From a virus (lineage: Duplodnaviria > Caudoviricetes), in the IMG/VR virus record IMGVR_UViG_3300017766_002609, positions 1-42,589 of that record: a DNA stretch of 42,589 nt, one strand, 5' to 3'. Both the position numbers and the translations under genes were made by a program. The notes below the pieces were generated by a model. That model ran no database searches. It was given only the letters and a program-made list of their open reading frames with translations, and was not told the origin of the DNA. Positions 4,367-40,860 of the stretch are shown piece by piece. The first letter of the stretch is position 1. Each line of letters begins with the position of its first letter.

Positions 4367-5854
4367 TCAATCTACTAGGGGGTCCGTTGAGTCAAAGTTG
4401 GTGGAAGGGGAGTCGAGCTTCTCCAGCCAGAACTCCGGCATGGTGACCTCGGTGGCGATCCCCATGGGGAAGTCGCTGGCCGCCTCGGGCTGCCACCGGA
4501 AGGAGTCGAGCCGCACGCCGTTGGGCGGGTAGACTCGGGCCTTGAAGAAGGTGCCCTGCAGCGTTGCGCGACCCTTGGAGATGCTGGGCCAGATGCGGAT
4601 GGTCTTGAGCCGACGGTACCGGTTCGGGATGTCGACGAAGGACGTGATGCCACCCTCGGTGTGATCCAGCAGGTACCGCCCGTCGTCGAACACGTCGAGC
4701 TGCGCCACCGCGTCCCAGCCCCCGCCGAGGCCGCCGTCGAGGAACGTAGCCCAGCCGGAGTAGTACAGCGGTCCGTCGCCGCGTGCCACGAGGTCGCTGG
4801 CGTAGTCCAGATTGAACCCACGCACGTCGACCTCGGTGCCCTTGACGAAGTACGGGATGCGCTGTAGCTCCCGGATGAACTCCTCGATGCCGTTGTAGAC
4901 CCGGCCCTCGAACTCCTTGAGCCGTGCGCTGGTCTTCCCGGGGAACGGGTAGAGGCGCGGGAAGGCGTCGTAGTTCGCATAGCCGGGGTTCCAGCGGACC
5001 ACGCGGTACAGGCCGCGGCCCGGGCGAATGACCACCGGGAGGCAGGGCGGCAGCACGACAGGCGTGATGTCGGTCTCGCCGGCCCGGATGAAGCCCCACT
5101 GGTTCCGGCGGGTCGTCTGCTGCTGCACGATGGCGAGCGTGTCCAGCCGACGACGGACCTCGATCAGCTTGCGCTCAAGGCGCCAGCCGCGGAGGGTCAT
5201 CGGGAAGCCGTCAGGCGGCGGGTCGACCCACGTAGCGAACACCGGGTCGAAGTTGATGGGGTCCGGTGCGTTGGCGCCCGTCGTGAAGTCGACGGCGTTC
5301 GAGATGGTCAGCGACTCGACGATGTTCGTGAAGTCCAGCCCCCGCGGCGTGGTGCCGATGACGGTCCCGTTGTTGAACGTGTTGCCCGGGGGGTGGTAGG
5401 TGTAGGTGTACCGGCGGCCGGTCGCGCCGGAGCCGGTGTCCACCTGCGCCATGACGCCCCCATCCGGGAACAGGCGGGCGAACTGCTCGTGCAGCAGGAC
5501 CGGGTCGGCGTTGGCCGAGTAACCCACCGGGAACGGGGTGGACCCGAGGAACCCACTGAGGACCCCAGAGCCGTCCCGGGTGGAGCCGTTGTAGGTGTCT
5601 CCGTAGGCCTCGTAGGCCGTCCAGCCCTGAATCGCCGTGGCGACCGCGACGAACCCATGGACGCTATTCTCGCCCGTGGCGGGGTCCACCGGGGCCGGCG
5701 AGTAGACCACGTTGGCCACCACGGAACCCTTCTTGCTGGTCGCGCCGGTCGCGCTGCGCAGCACCTGAGTGCGCAGGGCGGTAACGTCGATGCCCTCCGG
5801 GGGCGGAACCTCCCGGAGGACCTGCGTGCGGATTGCCGTGATGCGCTGCGTCAT
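4367..5854 (-). CDS. Putative tail/receptor-binding accessory protein (~495 aa)
   Basis: ATG at 5854 overlaps the upstream TGA (ATGA); duplicated N-terminal TAxRTQVLR motif; sits in the tail-fibre module. Confidence 0.65.
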   Translation of the reverse strand: MTQRITAIRTQVLREVPPPEGIDVTALRTQVLRSATGATSKKGSVVANVVYSPAPVDPATGENSVHGFVAVATAIQGWTAYEAYGDTYNGSTRDGSGVLSGFLGSTPFPVGYSANADPVLLHEQFARLFPDGGVMAQVDTGSGATGRRYTYTYHPPGNTFNNGTVIGTTPRGLDFTNIVESLTISNAVDFTTGANAPDPINFDPVFATWVDPPPDGFPMTLRGWRLERKLIEVRRRLDTLAIVQQQTTRRNQWGFIRAGETDITPVVLPPCLPVVIRPGRGLYRVVRWNPGYANYDAFPRLYPFPGKTSARLKEFEGRVYNGIEEFIRELQRIPYFVKGTEVDVRGFNLDYASDLVARGDGPLYYSGWATFLDGGLGGGWDAVAQLDVFDDGRYLLDHTEGGITSFVDIPNRYRRLKTIRIWPSISKGRATLQGTFFKARVYPPNGVRLDSFRWQPEAASDFPMGIATEVTMPEFWLEKLDSPSTNFDSTDPLVD

Positions 5855-18615: not shown

Positions 18616-18917
18616 GGTGTTGATTTCCTTGAGGATTGAGGATGGGAAGTGGTGTTCCGGGGTCCCCTTCTCACGGTTCGTTCTTGGTTGTCCGCCTCGG
18701 CGGGCCGCGTTCTACTGGGTGGTCGGTCGACTGGTGTCACCTAACGCCGCTGAGGAGCGGTCGCTAAAGGGCCCCTTACGAGGGCGAGGCGGACATTCAC
18801 GAGGGTCAGCGGTTGTTCCCGGGTTACGGCCGGGTCACGGGCCACGTTGCGGGGGGCCAGTACGGGCAGTTGCAGCTGCCGGGTCGGTGGGTCGCCACCA
18901 CGCGCCCACCTTGCATC

Positions 18918-22372: not shown

Positions 22373-23122
22373 TCACTTCGCCGGGGACCAGAGGATCGGC
22401 TTCTTGGCCTTGAAGTCGAAGTCCGTGGCGCGGAGGATGCGCGCGCAGCGGGCCTGCACCAGTGCGTCCTCCTCGGTCAGACCGGCCTTGACGTAGGCGT
22501 TGAGGACGGTGTCCCACGTTGCCCCCTTGGCCTCCAGCAGGCGCTCGGCGGTCTTCGGGCCGATGCCCGGGCAGCCCGGGTAGCCGTCCGTGGCGTCACC
22601 GATCAGCGTCTGGTACAGGTGGTACCGGTCCGCGTCGGCTTCCGTGGTCTCGTGCATCTGCTTCTTGTGGAAGTCCCAGTACCGGCACGGGATCGTCTTG
22701 AAGTCCTTGTCGATGGACGCGATGATCTTCGGGCCCGGGATGATCGTCGGCGAGGTGGCGAGGATGCCGATGCAGTCGTCGCCCTCCAGCGTCGGGCGCA
22801 GGTAGGTGCGGTACTTGTCGAGCAGGTGCTCGCGCAGGAAGGGCAGCGTCAGCGGCTTCCGGGTCTCCTTGCGGTTCGACTTGTACAGGGGGTACACGTC
22901 GGTGCGGAAGTTCCGGCCGTCCGTCAGGCAGAAGACCATCTCCGCCCCCGGGAACTGCTCGGCGAGCGAGGCGATCTGCTCCTCCAGCACCCGGACGGCG
23001 TCCTCCTCGTAGCCATGGACGGTCCAGATGCCCTCGCCCCAGTTGATCGACTTCTCGGTCGAGGCAGCGGCGCGGTAGGCGAGGATGTCACCGTCGACCA
23101 GCAGCGTGGTCGGGGCGCTCAC
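22373..23122 (-). CDS. 5'-3' exonuclease (gp6-like)
   Basis: LLVDGDILAY, YKSNRK, LEGDDCIGI, SIDKD, GDATDGYPGCPGIGPKTA. Confidence 0.95.
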   Translation of the reverse strand: MSAPTTLLVDGDILAYRAAASTEKSINWGEGIWTVHGYEEDAVRVLEEQIASLAEQFPGAEMVFCLTDGRNFRTDVYPLYKSNRKETRKPLTLPFLREHLLDKYRTYLRPTLEGDDCIGILATSPTIIPGPKIIASIDKDFKTIPCRYWDFHKKQMHETTEADADRYHLYQTLIGDATDGYPGCPGIGPKTAERLLEAKGATWDTVLNAYVKAGLTEEDALVQARCARILRATDFDFKAKKPILWSPAK

Positions 23123-23884: not shown

Positions 23885-25886
23885 GTTTCCATTCCCCGGT
23901 GATCGGGCAGTTGAGGTTGAGGCGCACGCCGGCAGCCGCGATGGCTTCCACGGTGGCGTCGCCGAGGGCGTCCCGGACTTCCCGGGTCACGCTGATCTGC
24001 AGCTCGTCGTGAATCCAAGCGCGGATGACGTAGTCCTTGCCCCAGACCCAGCCGCGGGCGTCGTAGGCCTTGATGGCCTCGTCGATCCAGACCTTCGCCA
24101 CGATGGCGCCGGCCGACTGCAGCAGGGTGTTCAGGGCGGAGTGCGCCGAGCGGACGTAGAGCTTGCCCCCATCGAGCCCGGTCAGGGACTGCGTGGCCCC
24201 GGCCTTCTCCTTGACGGCCTTGATGAGGGCGCCGAGGGCAGGCAGGGACTTCAGGAAGCGCGCCTTGATCGTCTTGGCTTGGTCAGCGTCGACCCCGAGG
24301 ATGACGGCCAGCTTCTCCGCGCCGGCCCCGTAGAGGAAGGCGTAGATGAAGGTCTTGGCGATGTCGCGGCCCTTGACTGCGCGGCCGTTGACCGTGTAGA
24401 CCTTCTTGGGCTCGAAGCCCAGCGCCTTGCAGTTCAGGGAGTGGACATCGGTCTCGTCCTCGGACTTGCCCTCGACCACGGCCCGGGCGTAGGCGCCACC
24501 GTCCCAGCGTGCCATGTAGTGGGCGAGCATCCGCAGCTCGATGCCGGACAGGTCGGCACCGATCAGGCAGAAGCCATGGCCCGCATGGAACAGGGCGCGG
24601 CACTCGGCGCCGAAGTAGGAGCCGACCTTGGGGACCTGCGCGATGTTCGGGCGGGAGTGGGTGGCCCGTCGCGTCACCGCGCCGAGCGTGTTGTACCCGC
24701 CATGGACCGCACCATCTGCGCCCACGACCTTGAGCCAGCCCTCGTTGCCCTCGGACAGCTGGCCGGCGCGCTTCTGCAGGAGCATGAAGCGGGCGAGCGG
24801 CTTGGCCTCGGGGAACGGCAGGAACGCCAGCACCGTGTCGTCGATGGCCGGCGAGCCGTCATCGGTGAACTCGGTGGGCGCCCAGCCGTACTTGGCCCGG
24901 AAGCGGTCGGCGATATGGAAGCGGCTGGACGGGTTGAACTCGGTCAGCGCCACCTTGGTGTAGGTCGCGCCCTCCGGGTACAGCACGCCGCCGGTCTTGA
25001 CCGACACCGTCTTGGCCTTGCCGTTGACGATCTGCTTCTCCTTGACGACGACCGCGCCCTCGTGCCGGGTGCGCTTCACGGTGACCCGGGAGGGAACCTT
25101 GATCTTCCGCTTGGTGCCGTCCGCGAGGGTCTCGGTCTGCGCCGAGGACTCCGGCTGGTACCACGGCGGGAACAGGGTGCGCAGCTCGCGGTGCAGCCGG
25201 TCGCGCTCCTCGACGATCTGGCAGTACAGCTTGGCCGCGCTGCGCTCGTCGAACGGGAAGCCCGCGTCGGTGACCCGCAGCATCAGCTCCTGCACAACGT
25301 GCTCGACGCGGCTGGCCGCCTCGGAGTACGGGGTCTTGAGGATGCGGCTGAACAGCTCGCCGGTCACCTCGATGTCCTGCACGCAGTAGTCGATCATCTC
25401 GGGGCGGCACTTCGCCCATGGGTCGTCGATGCCGTTGGCCTTGCACCAGTCGGTGTAGTCGCCCTTCATCTTGCCCATGCGCCAGCCGAAGGCTTCCAGC
25501 GAGTGGTTGCCGTACAGCTTGGACGGCATCCCCAGCGCCTTGCCCTTGGCCCAGTCGATGGCCATCAGGCGGTCGCGGGGCCAGCGCAGCTTGGCCTCGA
25601 TCAGCGTGTCGATCACGCGGTCGAGGGGGAGGTCGAAGCCGTAGAGCTTCTTCAGGACCCGGAGGTCATACGCCAGACCGTTGTGCATGACGACTCGGTC
25701 GGCTTGCGCCATACGCTCAAGAGCGCCAGCGATGGTGAGCCGGGTGGTCCCCGGCGGGGTGTACGGGTGATCGGTCGCCACGTAGGTGGTGCCCATCTCC
25801 ACGGCGCGGAGCACGATGACGTGTGTCGTCGTGACCGCGTCGAGGAACCCGTCCGTTTCGATGTCAGCGAGGACGGTGTCGGTCAT
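23856..25886 (-). CDS. DNA polymerase, family A (gp5-like, ~676 aa)
   Basis: Exo I ADIETDG, HNGLAYD, YCVQD; motif A GADLSGIELR; motif B KTFIYAFLYG (Tyr at the 762-equivalent position); motif C WIHDELQ. Confidence 0.97.
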   Translation of the reverse strand: MTDTVLADIETDGFLDAVTTTHVIVLRAVEMGTTYVATDHPYTPPGTTRLTIAGALERMAQADRVVMHNGLAYDLRVLKKLYGFDLPLDRVIDTLIEAKLRWPRDRLMAIDWAKGKALGMPSKLYGNHSLEAFGWRMGKMKGDYTDWCKANGIDDPWAKCRPEMIDYCVQDIEVTGELFSRILKTPYSEAASRVEHVVQELMLRVTDAGFPFDERSAAKLYCQIVEERDRLHRELRTLFPPWYQPESSAQTETLADGTKRKIKVPSRVTVKRTRHEGAVVVKEKQIVNGKAKTVSVKTGGVLYPEGATYTKVALTEFNPSSRFHIADRFRAKYGWAPTEFTDDGSPAIDDTVLAFLPFPEAKPLARFMLLQKRAGQLSEGNEGWLKVVGADGAVHGGYNTLGAVTRRATHSRPNIAQVPKVGSYFGAECRALFHAGHGFCLIGADLSGIELRMLAHYMARWDGGAYARAVVEGKSEDETDVHSLNCKALGFEPKKVYTVNGRAVKGRDIAKTFIYAFLYGAGAEKLAVILGVDADQAKTIKARFLKSLPALGALIKAVKEKAGATQSLTGLDGGKLYVRSAHSALNTLLQSAGAIVAKVWIDEAIKAYDARGWVWGKDYVIRAWIHDELQISVTREVRDALGDATVEAIAAAGVRLNLNCPITGEWKHGLNWADTH

Positions 25887-33219: not shown

Positions 33220-33461
33220 ACCGGGTGGCCGGCGTTGCAGAACTTCTTGGCCCGCTGGTACAGCCAGCGCAGGCAGCCCGGGGACAGCGTGCGGGTCACC
33301 GAGGGGACCGTTCGGAACTCCGGCAGCCCGTTCAGGCCGATGGTCCCGGTGGGCACCAGCCGGTGCTTCACGACGGTGTCGCGGTACTCGACCCGCGGGT
33401 TCGCCGGGTCGCCCCAGCCGTTGATGGTGCGGCGCAGCTTCTTGGCCTTTTTCGCGTTCAT
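33216..33461 (-). CDS. Basic early hypothetical protein (81 aa)
   Basis: MNAKKAKKLRR start; GGAGGA RBS. Confidence 0.75.
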   Translation of the reverse strand: MNAKKAKKLRRTINGWGDPANPRVEYRDTVVKHRLVPTGTIGLNGLPEFRTVPSVTRTLSPGCLRWLYQRAKKFCNAGHPV

Positions 33462-33463
33462 GT

Positions 33464-33604
33464 TCAGAATCCTCCGGTGAAGGTGACGGTGACAACGGTG
33501 TCGTGGAAGTCGTTGGTGGCCTTGAAGGACACACCAGTGGCGACCAGCGCCGCGAGAATGGCGGCGAGGTCGGCGAGGGTATCGTAACGGTAGGTCAGGG
33601 TCAT
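33464..33604 (-). CDS. Small early hypothetical protein (46 aa), not in ORF track
   Basis: MTLTYRYDTLADLAAILAALVATGVSFKATNDFHDTVVTVTFTGGF; 2-nt gaps to both neighbours. Confidence 0.65.
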   Translation of the reverse strand: MTLTYRYDTLADLAAILAALVATGVSFKATNDFHDTVVTVTFTGGF

Positions 33605-33606
33605 GG

Positions 33607-33810
33607 TCAGATGCTCGCGCCCTTGCGGGCGTCAGGGTGGATGCGGAAGCGGTAGGGGTCGGGCTCGCCGGCCTTGAAGGGCGGGATGGCGGACAGCTTC
33701 CAGCGCCGCCACGGCCCGGTCATGGTGCTGAAGCCGGTGTCGACCGCGAGACAGAAGTCGATGGCCTTGCCCTCCTTGAGGAGGCGGGCCGCCTCGTCGC
33801 GGCCGATCAC
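33607..33810 (-). CDS. Early hypothetical protein (67 aa)
   Basis: GTGA coupling; MIGRDEAARLLKEG. Confidence 0.6.
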   Translation of the reverse strand: MIGRDEAARLLKEGKAIDFCLAVDTGFSTMTGPWRRWKLSAIPPFKAGEPDPYRFRIHPDARKGASI

Positions 33811-38388: not shown

Positions 38389-38991
38389 TCAGAAGTCGAA
38401 CGAGACCTGAGCGGTCGACAGGACCGCGTTCTCCAGCGTGCCGGGGCGGACCCCGGACTTGATGCAGATGCCGCACCAGATGGCCGCTTGGGTCTGGGCC
38501 ATGGTCCAGCCGCGCGCCTTGGCGATGGCCCCGCACAGCTTGTAGGCGGCGGCCATGTTGTCCTTGCGGGTCACCACGGCCTGAGGCACGCCCAGCGCCT
38601 TGGCCATCCACACGTCCAGCACCAGCGCCGATTCATCGCCCAGCAGGCACCGGGCGAAGGCGCTGGTCTTGGGGCCGCGGATTTCACCGGTCTCCAGCAG
38701 GTGGTTCAGCGAGGCCACAAGGCCCCGCATGGTGCCCTGCAGGACCATACCGTACCGCATGAAGGCTACGGTGTTGTCCCAGTTGCGCTTCACGCTGCAG
38801 CGAGGGGACAGGACGGCCATCACAGCCACGAAGCGGTCGCGGTCCCAGCCGTTCAGCTCACAGTGGCGGGCGATGGTCTGCCGCGCCCCAGCGTACCAGT
38901 CACGGTGCGGGGCACCGATGGTGGCGAGGTTGTCGAGATGCGCCATCATGCGCTTGCCAGCCACGATGCGATGCTTCAGTTCACGGGCCAT
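38389..38991 (-). CDS. Early protein with putative HhH/DNA-glycosylase-like fold (200 aa)
   Basis: WY...AVLSPR...N...GPKTSAF...G....VLDVW...QAAIW; the GPKT hairpin and downstream Asp resemble HhH-GPD enzymes. Confidence 0.65.
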   Translation of the reverse strand: MARELKHRIVAGKRMMAHLDNLATIGAPHRDWYAGARQTIARHCELNGWDRDRFVAVMAVLSPRCSVKRNWDNTVAFMRYGMVLQGTMRGLVASLNHLLETGEIRGPKTSAFARCLLGDESALVLDVWMAKALGVPQAVVTRKDNMAAAYKLCGAIAKARGWTMAQTQAAIWCGICIKSGVRPGTLENAVLSTAQVSFDF

Positions 38992-39084
38992 GGTAGGTCT
39001 CCAGTAGGCTTTACGATGGACCCCGCGGGGCCCATGGGAAAGCCAGACAGGGCCCCGTAGGGCCCCGCTGGATGGTGGTGGTGA

Positions 39085-39453: not shown

Positions 39454-39962
39454 GGTGATGCTCCAGTGGGGGAGGGTACAGCCTATGGGCAAAAGGCGCT
39501 GAAGTCCAGCGCCCTTTCCGATAGACCGGGCGGGCCTGCTGAGAAGCAGTACCCGCCGGGTTTGCTCGGTGTGTCCTCGATGCCAAGTCCGACCGACGCG
39601 CTGGGGTGACACCATGGTGACCCATGGGGGACGGTCCCCGGTCGGTCTACAGCCCCGCACCGTTCGCCGCCATGCCCTTCCCGCCGTCCTACCTTGTGCA
39701 TCGTCAATGGGCGGTCTAGCTGTCTGCTAGTGGTGGCTCGTTGGCTCACCCCGCTGCCTTGGACCCGGCAGTTCCCTGCCGTGTCCCATGGGGCCATACC
39801 GTATAGGCGGTACCCCATGCCCGGATTGCTGGTGCTCCCCGGTCCCCCAGTCCGATCACGAGTCTGGGTCCTCGACTGATAGCGTCAGTTCGCGCCCCGT
39901 TATCGGAAGGGACCAGCCGGGTCGATTGCCTGTACAAGGTACCGACGCACTCCGTACCACTT
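39454..39962 (-). ncRNA. Structured early leader RNA (candidate)
   Basis: No convincing ORF; many nested inverted repeats (see findings); downstream of three host promoters. Confidence 0.45.
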
Positions 39963-39969
39963 GGACCGC

Positions 39970-39998
39970 ACTATACTCCGCTTGCCTGCCCTTGTCAA
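39970..39998 (-). promoter_or_regulatory. Host sigma70 early promoter (A3-like)
   Basis: TTGACA-17 nt-TATAGT. Confidence 0.9.
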
Positions 39999-40048: not shown

Positions 40049-40077
40049 ATCCTATGCTAGTTCGGCTCGCTTGTCAA
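40049..40077 (-). promoter_or_regulatory. Host sigma70 early promoter (A2-like)
   Basis: TTGACA-17 nt-TAGGAT. Confidence 0.85.
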
Positions 40078-40167: not shown

Positions 40168-40196
40168 ATCTTGCCACACTCGCCGACCCTTGTCAA
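40168..40196 (-). promoter_or_regulatory. Host sigma70 early promoter (A1-like)
   Basis: TTGACA-17 nt-CAAGAT with extended -10 TG. Confidence 0.75.
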
Positions 40197-40584
40197 CCCC
40201 CCTTGGGGAGTGCCGCGGGTCGACTTGTGTAAAGGGCGATGCCCCGAGGGGCCCGGGTGGCGGTGGCCGCCTCCCGATGGACACCACTATCCCCCCTTTC
40301 GATCCGACTTGCAAGCGGCTGTGGATGAACGGTATGGATCGGCCGATGAACGGCAAAAATGGGTCGTTGGGCGGCCCGGATAGATCGCGCGATGCGCGCG
40401 GGTGATGCGCGATGCGTGCGTGCGCGATCCATCTGGGGGCCTGAGGCGTGCCTGCGGGGTGCGCGTGGGGTGCGCGTGGGCGCCACCCGGGTGCGCGTGC
40501 GTTGCGCGTGATATGGAAAATTCACCCCAGCGAACGAGAATGTTACCGATCGGTCACATCCTGCCCCCTCGGCCCCCTTTCGAC

Positions 40585-40708
40585 CCCCTGAGGGCCCCGG
40601 ATGGATCGTGCGGGGGCGCGTGCGCGTGCCTGCGTGGGCGCCATGCGGGCCCATGCGAGCCCCCCGAGGTCCCCTGAGGGCCCCGGATGGATCGTGCGGG
40701 GGCGCGTG
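40585..40708. repeat. Perfect 38-bp direct repeat (40585-40622, 40671-40708) within a GCGCGTG-rich non-coding tract
   Basis: cccctgagggccccggatggatcgtgcgggggcgcgtg occurs twice, 86 nt apart start to start. Confidence 0.9.
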
Positions 40709-40860
40709 GGGGCGCCCACGGCCGTCCGCGTGATGCCCGAGGGGGTGCGCGGGGGCGGCCGTGGGCGCGCGTGAGGCTGGGGGGGGGGTACCGGGGGGAA
40801 GCCGCCGCCAGTCGCTACGATTATGCCACTTCGGATTTTTCCGGGATTTTGCCGGGGACC

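Follow-up and report, generated by a model that had tools for sequence, protein, structure and literature searches.

The window, the whole 42,589-base stretch of DNA analysed here, is a complete virus genome with terminal repeats, and its minus-strand genes make up a T7-like set: single-subunit RNA polymerase, primase/helicase, DNA polymerase, head-tail adaptor, capsid and terminase. Because the nearest annotated polymerases are only ~40% identical to the window's, we take the phage to be uncultured. Two sigma70-type early promoters (Table 1), the upstream one with a -35 repeat that recurs as a third copy at 40189-40202, are directed into a structured stretch (39454-39962, here the leader) ahead of the first gene, and from the promoter sequences we infer that host RNA polymerase starts transcription near 39963. 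No further sigma70 consensus promoter occurs between 28000 and 39960, that is, before the phage polymerase gene, so that all early genes rely on read-through. Upstream of the promoters lies an ORF-poor segment (40361-40860) with G+C-rich direct repeats (a 46-nt pair at 86-nt spacing), which probably holds the genome end.

The first early gene is likely to encode an anti-restriction SAM lyase. Its structure model (pLDDT 77) has a ferredoxin-type fold whose best Foldseek match is the phage SAM lyase 6zm9 (E 0.002, TM 0.52), and VIA-align placed 6zm9 at rank 17, with 107 aligned positions, an rmsd of 4.1 and a Z of 6.6 that is tied with other ferredoxin-like folds. The 6zm9 alignment is the longest among the 50 rows of the wide structure search, and atlas look-alikes point weakly in the same direction; Pfam and PHROG searches with the gene gave no match. 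The SAM lyase of phage T3 is reportedly the product of its gene 0.3, the position that we take the window's first gene to occupy.

The leader itself is non-coding, as the first-pass annotation had supposed in finding no credible ORF there. Although ORFs of 31-111 aa overlap it, G+C is flat at 0.64-0.66 at all three codon positions, compared with ~0.9 at third positions in the genes, an absence of codon bias that rules out a coding reading; the one ORF tested (39483-39818) had no PHROG match, and ARAGORN called no tRNA or tmRNA in the region.

The sole full-length homologue that we found, L001, lies in a colinear phage (record G001) whose proteins are 60-83% identical to the window's in the nine comparisons made. 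Within a core of ~370 nt the two copies agree at 298 of 368 positions (81%), whereas the four-fold sites of nine gene pairs agree at 939 of 1668 (56%); unpaired core positions are kept as well (123 of 154). Identity falls to 59/95 over 39577-39483 and to 5/29 over 39482-39454, placing the 3' border of the core at about 39578. Sixteen public runs were listed and eight compared, among which X1 is possibly the source itself; all seven others contain core pieces. None of the runs is listed as an RNA sample (X11 is marked as probably DNA), which has no bearing on expression, and because they were retrieved with the core stretch, their coverage of core and genes is not a neutral comparison. The most informative is X10, where a single contig spans 39585-39970 with 56 differing letters and 6 gaps and its loose end runs into a -35 box of its own, in the same register as the window promoter; L001 retains the -35 box with a linker 2 nt shorter. 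Contigs of X2, X10 and X15 cease to match at 39580-39585, marking a sharp module border, and X3, X5, X9 and X15, which carry an identical small set of listed changes, may represent one lineage. Just 3' of the core, X2, X10, X15 and L001 have a short purine-rich motif that the window lacks, and in X15 this could be the ribosome-binding site of a different next gene.

Table 1. Features of the early region, in window coordinates (L001, full-length homologue; X2 and X10, public runs)
Feature	Position	Strand	Evidence
Upstream early promoter, sigma70-type	40049..40077	-	10/12 consensus matches
RNA-proximal early promoter, sigma70-type	39970..39998	-	11/12 consensus matches
Predicted discrete transcript, ~470 nt	39490..39963	-	Inferred from promoter and terminator-like hairpin
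Conserved structured core, 368 nt, 17 modelled helices, 107 pairs	39578..39945	-	Conservation and covariation
5' strand: local hairpin or 5' arm of long-range helix with 39709-39690	39922..39945	-	Alternative pairings
Multiway junction	39846..39921	-	Hairpins 39913-39894, 39889-39875 and 39874-39859
Hairpin, purine-rich 2x2 internal loop, covarying top pair (L001, X2, X10)	39821..39842	-	Covariation
Hairpin, covarying base and invariant top	39787..39819	-	3 compensatory pairs in L001
GNRA (GGAA)-capped hairpin	39761..39786	-	Compensatory in L001 and X10, G-U in X2
Three-way junction including CTAGC/GCTAG hairpin	39711..39754	-	Two compensatory pairs in X2
3' domain: closing helix, long interrupted stem, three-way junction	39578..39702	-	Covariation
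Hairpin, shape but not sequence kept in L001	39526..39559	-	Folding of both copies
Terminator-like hairpin 39513-39495 and U4 39494-39491; longer imperfect stem on read-through	39483..39524	-	U run, folding
First early gene, 122 aa	39085..39453	-	Predicted structure

It is covariation among the sequences compared, and not folding energy, that marks the element as real. Against a model of the core set from the consensus of window and L001, 84 of the 107 pairs are unchanged in L001, 16 have changed in a compensatory manner, 6 show one-sided changes that keep the pair and 1 is broken; permuting the changes 5000 times gave means of 2.0 compensatory and 22 broken pairs (extremes 8 and 15), counts that are to be read with the model's own origin in mind, since it was drawn partly from these two sequences and is favoured by them. 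The changes in X2 and X10 supply an independent test, albeit with few changes, some of which repeat those of L001. Among the variants listed, and with 8 and 13 other rows scored as unchanged, X2 shows 3 compensatory, 2 one-sided kept and 1 broken among 41 scored pairs, while X10, scored over 55 pairs that leave out one indel-bearing helix and the pairs near the contig end, shows 5 compensatory, 1 one-sided kept and 2 broken. Two of the five compensatory pairs in X10 are new, and two of the three in X2 fall in the CTAGC/GCTAG hairpin (39730-39716), which is invariant between window and L001 and which the first-pass annotation had proposed. We regard it as highly probable that selection acts on the element as a folded RNA. 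On the minus strand the one-sided changes keep six pairs and break one, against three kept and four broken on the plus strand, which favours the minus strand as the RNA.

Folding energy is a poorer guide. Compared with shuffled controls, the whole leader gives a z of -3.06 on the minus strand (-3.68 on the plus strand) and L001 gives -2.71, but the conserved core reaches just -1.85, and among 30 control windows of the same length taken elsewhere on the minus strand, five lie at -2.35 or lower, with a minimum of -4.08. Folding energy alone therefore cannot single out the element, and we dropped it as proof of structure; single-sequence minimum-energy folds lie ~20 kcal/mol away from the covariation model.

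The sequence strings from which the first-pass annotation built its helices all occur at their positions on the minus strand, and the helices are borne out in part. The hairpin at 39787-39819 gains support from its compensatory pairs, as does the GGAA-capped hairpin, even though the latter has one broken pair in L001 and one in X10; the CCCGG/CCGGG pairing is invariant across the compared sequences. The adjoining CTGGT/ACCAG helix is refuted, two of its five pairs being broken in L001, X2 and X10, and the segment folds instead as the local hairpin 39821-39842. In the multiway junction, hairpins 39889-39875 and 39874-39859 carry three and two compensatory pairs, respectively. Two conserved loops of this junction are complementary to the invariant strand 39856-39846 (6/6 and 5/5 in both sequences), making a candidate double pseudoknot; the complementarity, noticed post hoc and without compensatory changes, was equalled by 12 of 5000 column shuffles. 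The 3' domain shows two compensatory and four one-sided kept changes in L001. Between core and gene, the hairpins at 39559-39526 and 39524-39483, also proposed at first pass, keep their shape in L001 but stand outside the core, in the diverged stretch where 59 of 95 letters agree.

The last of these hairpins had been read as an RNase III site, and a long imperfect stem is indeed predicted in both copies; it also resembles an intrinsic terminator. Runs of four or more T occur only five times on the whole 42.6-kb minus strand, and one of them directly follows hairpin 39513-39495, whose 7-bp stem (39513-39491 with its U4, -12.5 kcal/mol) went uncalled by the terminator scan because it falls below the scan's 5-T rule. 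At the orthologous place in G001 the scan did call a terminator, a U5 behind a 5-bp stem, so the hairpin has been retained despite divergence of the spacer. Since the U run is rare on the strand and is kept in the homologue, a terminator reading of the hairpin is as good as an RNase III reading. By folding, the stem extends beyond the U run in both copies, in L001 covering the ribosome-binding site, and after read-through it may be cut by RNase III; either termination or cutting at 39491 would release a discrete RNA of ~470 nt. Two further U runs in the window trail hairpins behind the endonuclease and capsid genes, places where T7-like phages have terminators. Such hairpin and U-run sites, near minus-strand 28696 and 17591 in the window and at 23085, 30007 and 34720 in G001, are likely early/middle and post-capsid terminators.

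The range of the element is, on the databases searched, narrow, with two complete copies known besides a few contigs that hold only part of it. Five DNA-pattern scans and three protein scans of viral contigs returned a single true homologue, the record behind L001 (the terminase scan reached 15 of 64 parts of the collection), the remaining pattern loci being chance matches by nhmmer or blastn. Among 60 loci from a metagenome scan only one, identical to the window, held the element; a locus from the genome scan was a chance match whose flanks have no similarity. Nothing beyond chance came from blastn of 50,697 annotated phage records and of 72,556 plasmid records, and covariance models of three core parts, run on 50 records, matched only the L001 control and none of 49 more distant records, which were chosen mainly by length from the protein-scan loci (19 of the 49 are at least 90% complete). 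The first-gene family comprises six clusters, so the clade is small, and it is in a small group of uncultured freshwater T7-like phages that the element is kept.

T7 and T3 have an early leader with the RNase III site R0.3 ahead of gene 0.3, and the element resembles it in its tandem sigma70 promoters, several hundred non-coding bases, long hairpin and likely SAM lyase as the first gene; it differs in that its core is conserved in sequence and covaries, and in that its hairpin retains a U run. The Rfam comparison suggested at first pass matched no family: against Rfam 15, whose families include ROOL, GOLLD, OLE, SRP, RNase P, tmRNA, riboswitches and ribozymes, the window had no hit at the gathering threshold, with rows at chance level only (E up to 10), and L001 had no rows at all. 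In kind there is a likeness to ROOL and GOLLD, large, ornate phage and prophage non-coding RNAs of unknown function, which are likewise multi-junction and phage-encoded, with structure seen by covariation and pseudoknots predicted (PMC12286853); the element, with its 368-nt core, is shorter (many GOLLD RNAs exceed 800 nt; PMC12286853), has no Rfam match, is not beside a tRNA island and heads a T7-like early transcript. Like putL and putR of the lambdoid phage HK022, it lies downstream of early host-polymerase promoters and upstream of an intrinsic terminator-like site (PMC9378689), but the earlier label put-like fails on size and shape, put being ~70 nt with two stem-loops (PMC9378689) where the element has a core five times that size and 17 modelled helices. 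We found no description of the element in the literature; in the virus structured-RNA catalogue of PMC10690425, core motifs are absent from six supplementary files, a scope outside which files 1, 2 and 4 may hold it. The proposal of an undescribed multi-branched phage non-coding RNA at the head of the early transcript is thus upheld by covariation together with the lack of an Rfam match, and the element is, so far as these sequences indicate, a new large structured RNA family of narrow range. Large multi-junction structured RNAs are rare, and many of those known catalyse reactions, act as sensors or assemble themselves into particles. The borders of this one are clean, and since it has a promoter and a likely 3' end it could be made and probed in vitro without culturing the phage.

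As to function, we tentatively favour, at somewhat short of an even chance, a stand-alone and probably pseudoknotted early RNA that acts in trans on the host. Host RNA polymerase would start near 39963; some transcripts would halt at 39491, or be cut after read-through, freeing the ~470-nt RNA, while others would continue into the likely SAM lyase gene and on through the early operon. Within minutes of the start of infection the freed RNA would adopt a compact fold, with two or three pseudoknots predicted, and act on a host protein as its decoy or scaffold. Since the RNA directly precedes a likely anti-restriction gene, our guess is that this target is a defence protein. We prefer action in trans because a promoter of its own, sharp borders and a retained 3' signal come together with far more conserved structure than put-type control needs; as a free RNA needs its own 3' end, the kept terminator-like hairpin counts in favour of this reading, though its U runs, of 4 and 5 letters, are short. 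Such action would amount to an RNA counter-defence ahead of any phage protein. Antisense targets elsewhere in the genome did not emerge, there being no shared complement of at least 12 nt, and shorter ones lie at non-orthologous places.

The element may instead act in cis, a possibility to which we give a smaller but appreciable weight: the nascent RNA would modify host polymerase in a put-like manner or switch folds, gating read-through of the terminator and with it entry to the likely SAM lyase gene and early operon; early transcription in a T7-like phage would then be under the control of RNA alone. Position (the core follows the promoter closely and at a conserved distance), the dependence of the early genes on read-through and two competing folds keep cis control close behind action in trans. 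The long-range helix 39941-39931/39700-39690, proposed at first pass to close a ~250-nt domain, is present in sequence at 10/11 pairs, nine of the positions being invariant, and in X10 all 11 pairs would form from the listed changes, provided that the 5' strand is unchanged; its two variable pairs, however, lack two-sided change, and its 3' strand is shared with a competitor, the 3' closing helix 39702-39693/39587-39579. That helix covaries too: its pairing survives two one-sided changes in L001, and in X10 its altered 5' strand pairs 6/6, by hand, with the contig's loose 3' end. Next to it, 39709-39705 differs among four variants and yet remains complementary to the invariant 5' strand, most weakly in X11; that strand can alternatively form a local hairpin (39922-39945), which has one compensatory pair in L001 and a 6-nt palindrome in its loop. 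The long-range and 3' closing folds are mutually exclusive, with matching energies for the window sequence (-204.7 and -204.8), and in L001 the long-range fold is better by 9 kcal/mol. That the variants are compatible with two exclusive folds suits a cis switch as well. A candidate antiterminator, 39604-39598, pairs with the terminator arm at 7/7 positions in the window and 6/7 in L001, but 179 of 2000 column-shuffled arms equal its score and the antiterminated fold of L001 is worse by 3-12 kcal/mol, so the pairing does not exceed chance; no pairing joins the fold switch to the terminator, and put does its work with only ~70 nt (PMC9378689).

A related and improbable variant casts the element as a two-state pseudoknotted RNA sensor of host state, in which the flip between long-range and 3' closing folds would gate host polymerase into the early operon. 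As in riboswitches and attenuators, a structured domain lies upstream of a terminator-like hairpin and a gene, and with a likely SAM lyase directly behind the RNA, SAM is the natural ligand candidate; were this so, a T7-like phage would make a riboswitch-like go/no-go decision.

Just as improbable is an ordinary T7-type leader whose hairpins stabilise early mRNA and feed an RNase III site, the freed piece being functionless. The slot is that of the T7 leader ahead of gene 0.3, the long imperfect stem of the last hairpin is common to both copies and covers the ribosome-binding site in L001, and the folding z of the core is unremarkable. Stabilising hairpins, however, need only shape, yet the unpaired positions of the core are kept, and the core is kept far better than the gene-adjacent hairpins; covariation likewise supports the first-pass view that the architecture is richer than a processing site needs.

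Slightly less probable again is a new class of ribozyme, one that would cleave or ligate the early transcript. Large ribozymes are marked by size, many junctions, invariant unpaired stretches, GNRA loops and pseudoknots, and the element has all of these, the pseudoknots as candidates, together with one internal strand able to pair with both the 5' and 3' ends of the core. Against this, no Rfam family scores meaningfully (the single ribozyme row is a 23-nt chance match, E 9), and the features typical of group I, group II and RNase P cores cannot be placed in order. Nor did resemblances to group I J4/5, group II domain V, the P4 region of RNase P or the Alu hairpin of SRP stand, since order and key bases do not fit and Rfam gives no support.

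A DNA-level element, whether origin, entry or packaging signal, is very unlikely: the locus is near the genome end that enters first, judging from gene order, and folding is no weaker on the plus strand, but G-U pairs preserve the pairing after one-sided changes when the minus strand is read (6 kept, 1 broken) and not when the plus strand is read (3 kept, 4 broken), and the GNRA loop, promoters and U run are all minus-strand features.

Several minor features of the two genomes deserve mention. Paired hairpins lie between early genes at 39007-39068 (minus strand), and two similar intergenic hairpin repeats occur in L001 at ~4530-4560 and 4945-4975; these are possible processing sites. A minus-strand gene (38389-38991) encodes a DUF7178/phrog_3842 protein whose mycobacteriophage relatives are annotated as glycosylases and which also follows a small gene in locus L002. 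An ARAGORN tRNA-Lys call at 24335-24431 (plus strand), antisense within the DNA polymerase gene and without Rfam support, is probably false. Finally, a ~300-nt non-coding gap between the scaffold and capsid genes (18616-18917, minus strand; 33399-33694 in G001) has no Rfam match in the window and contains several letter-identical blocks, including a hairpin-like 26-mer; a phage promoter combined with a processing site would fit, as would a further RNA.
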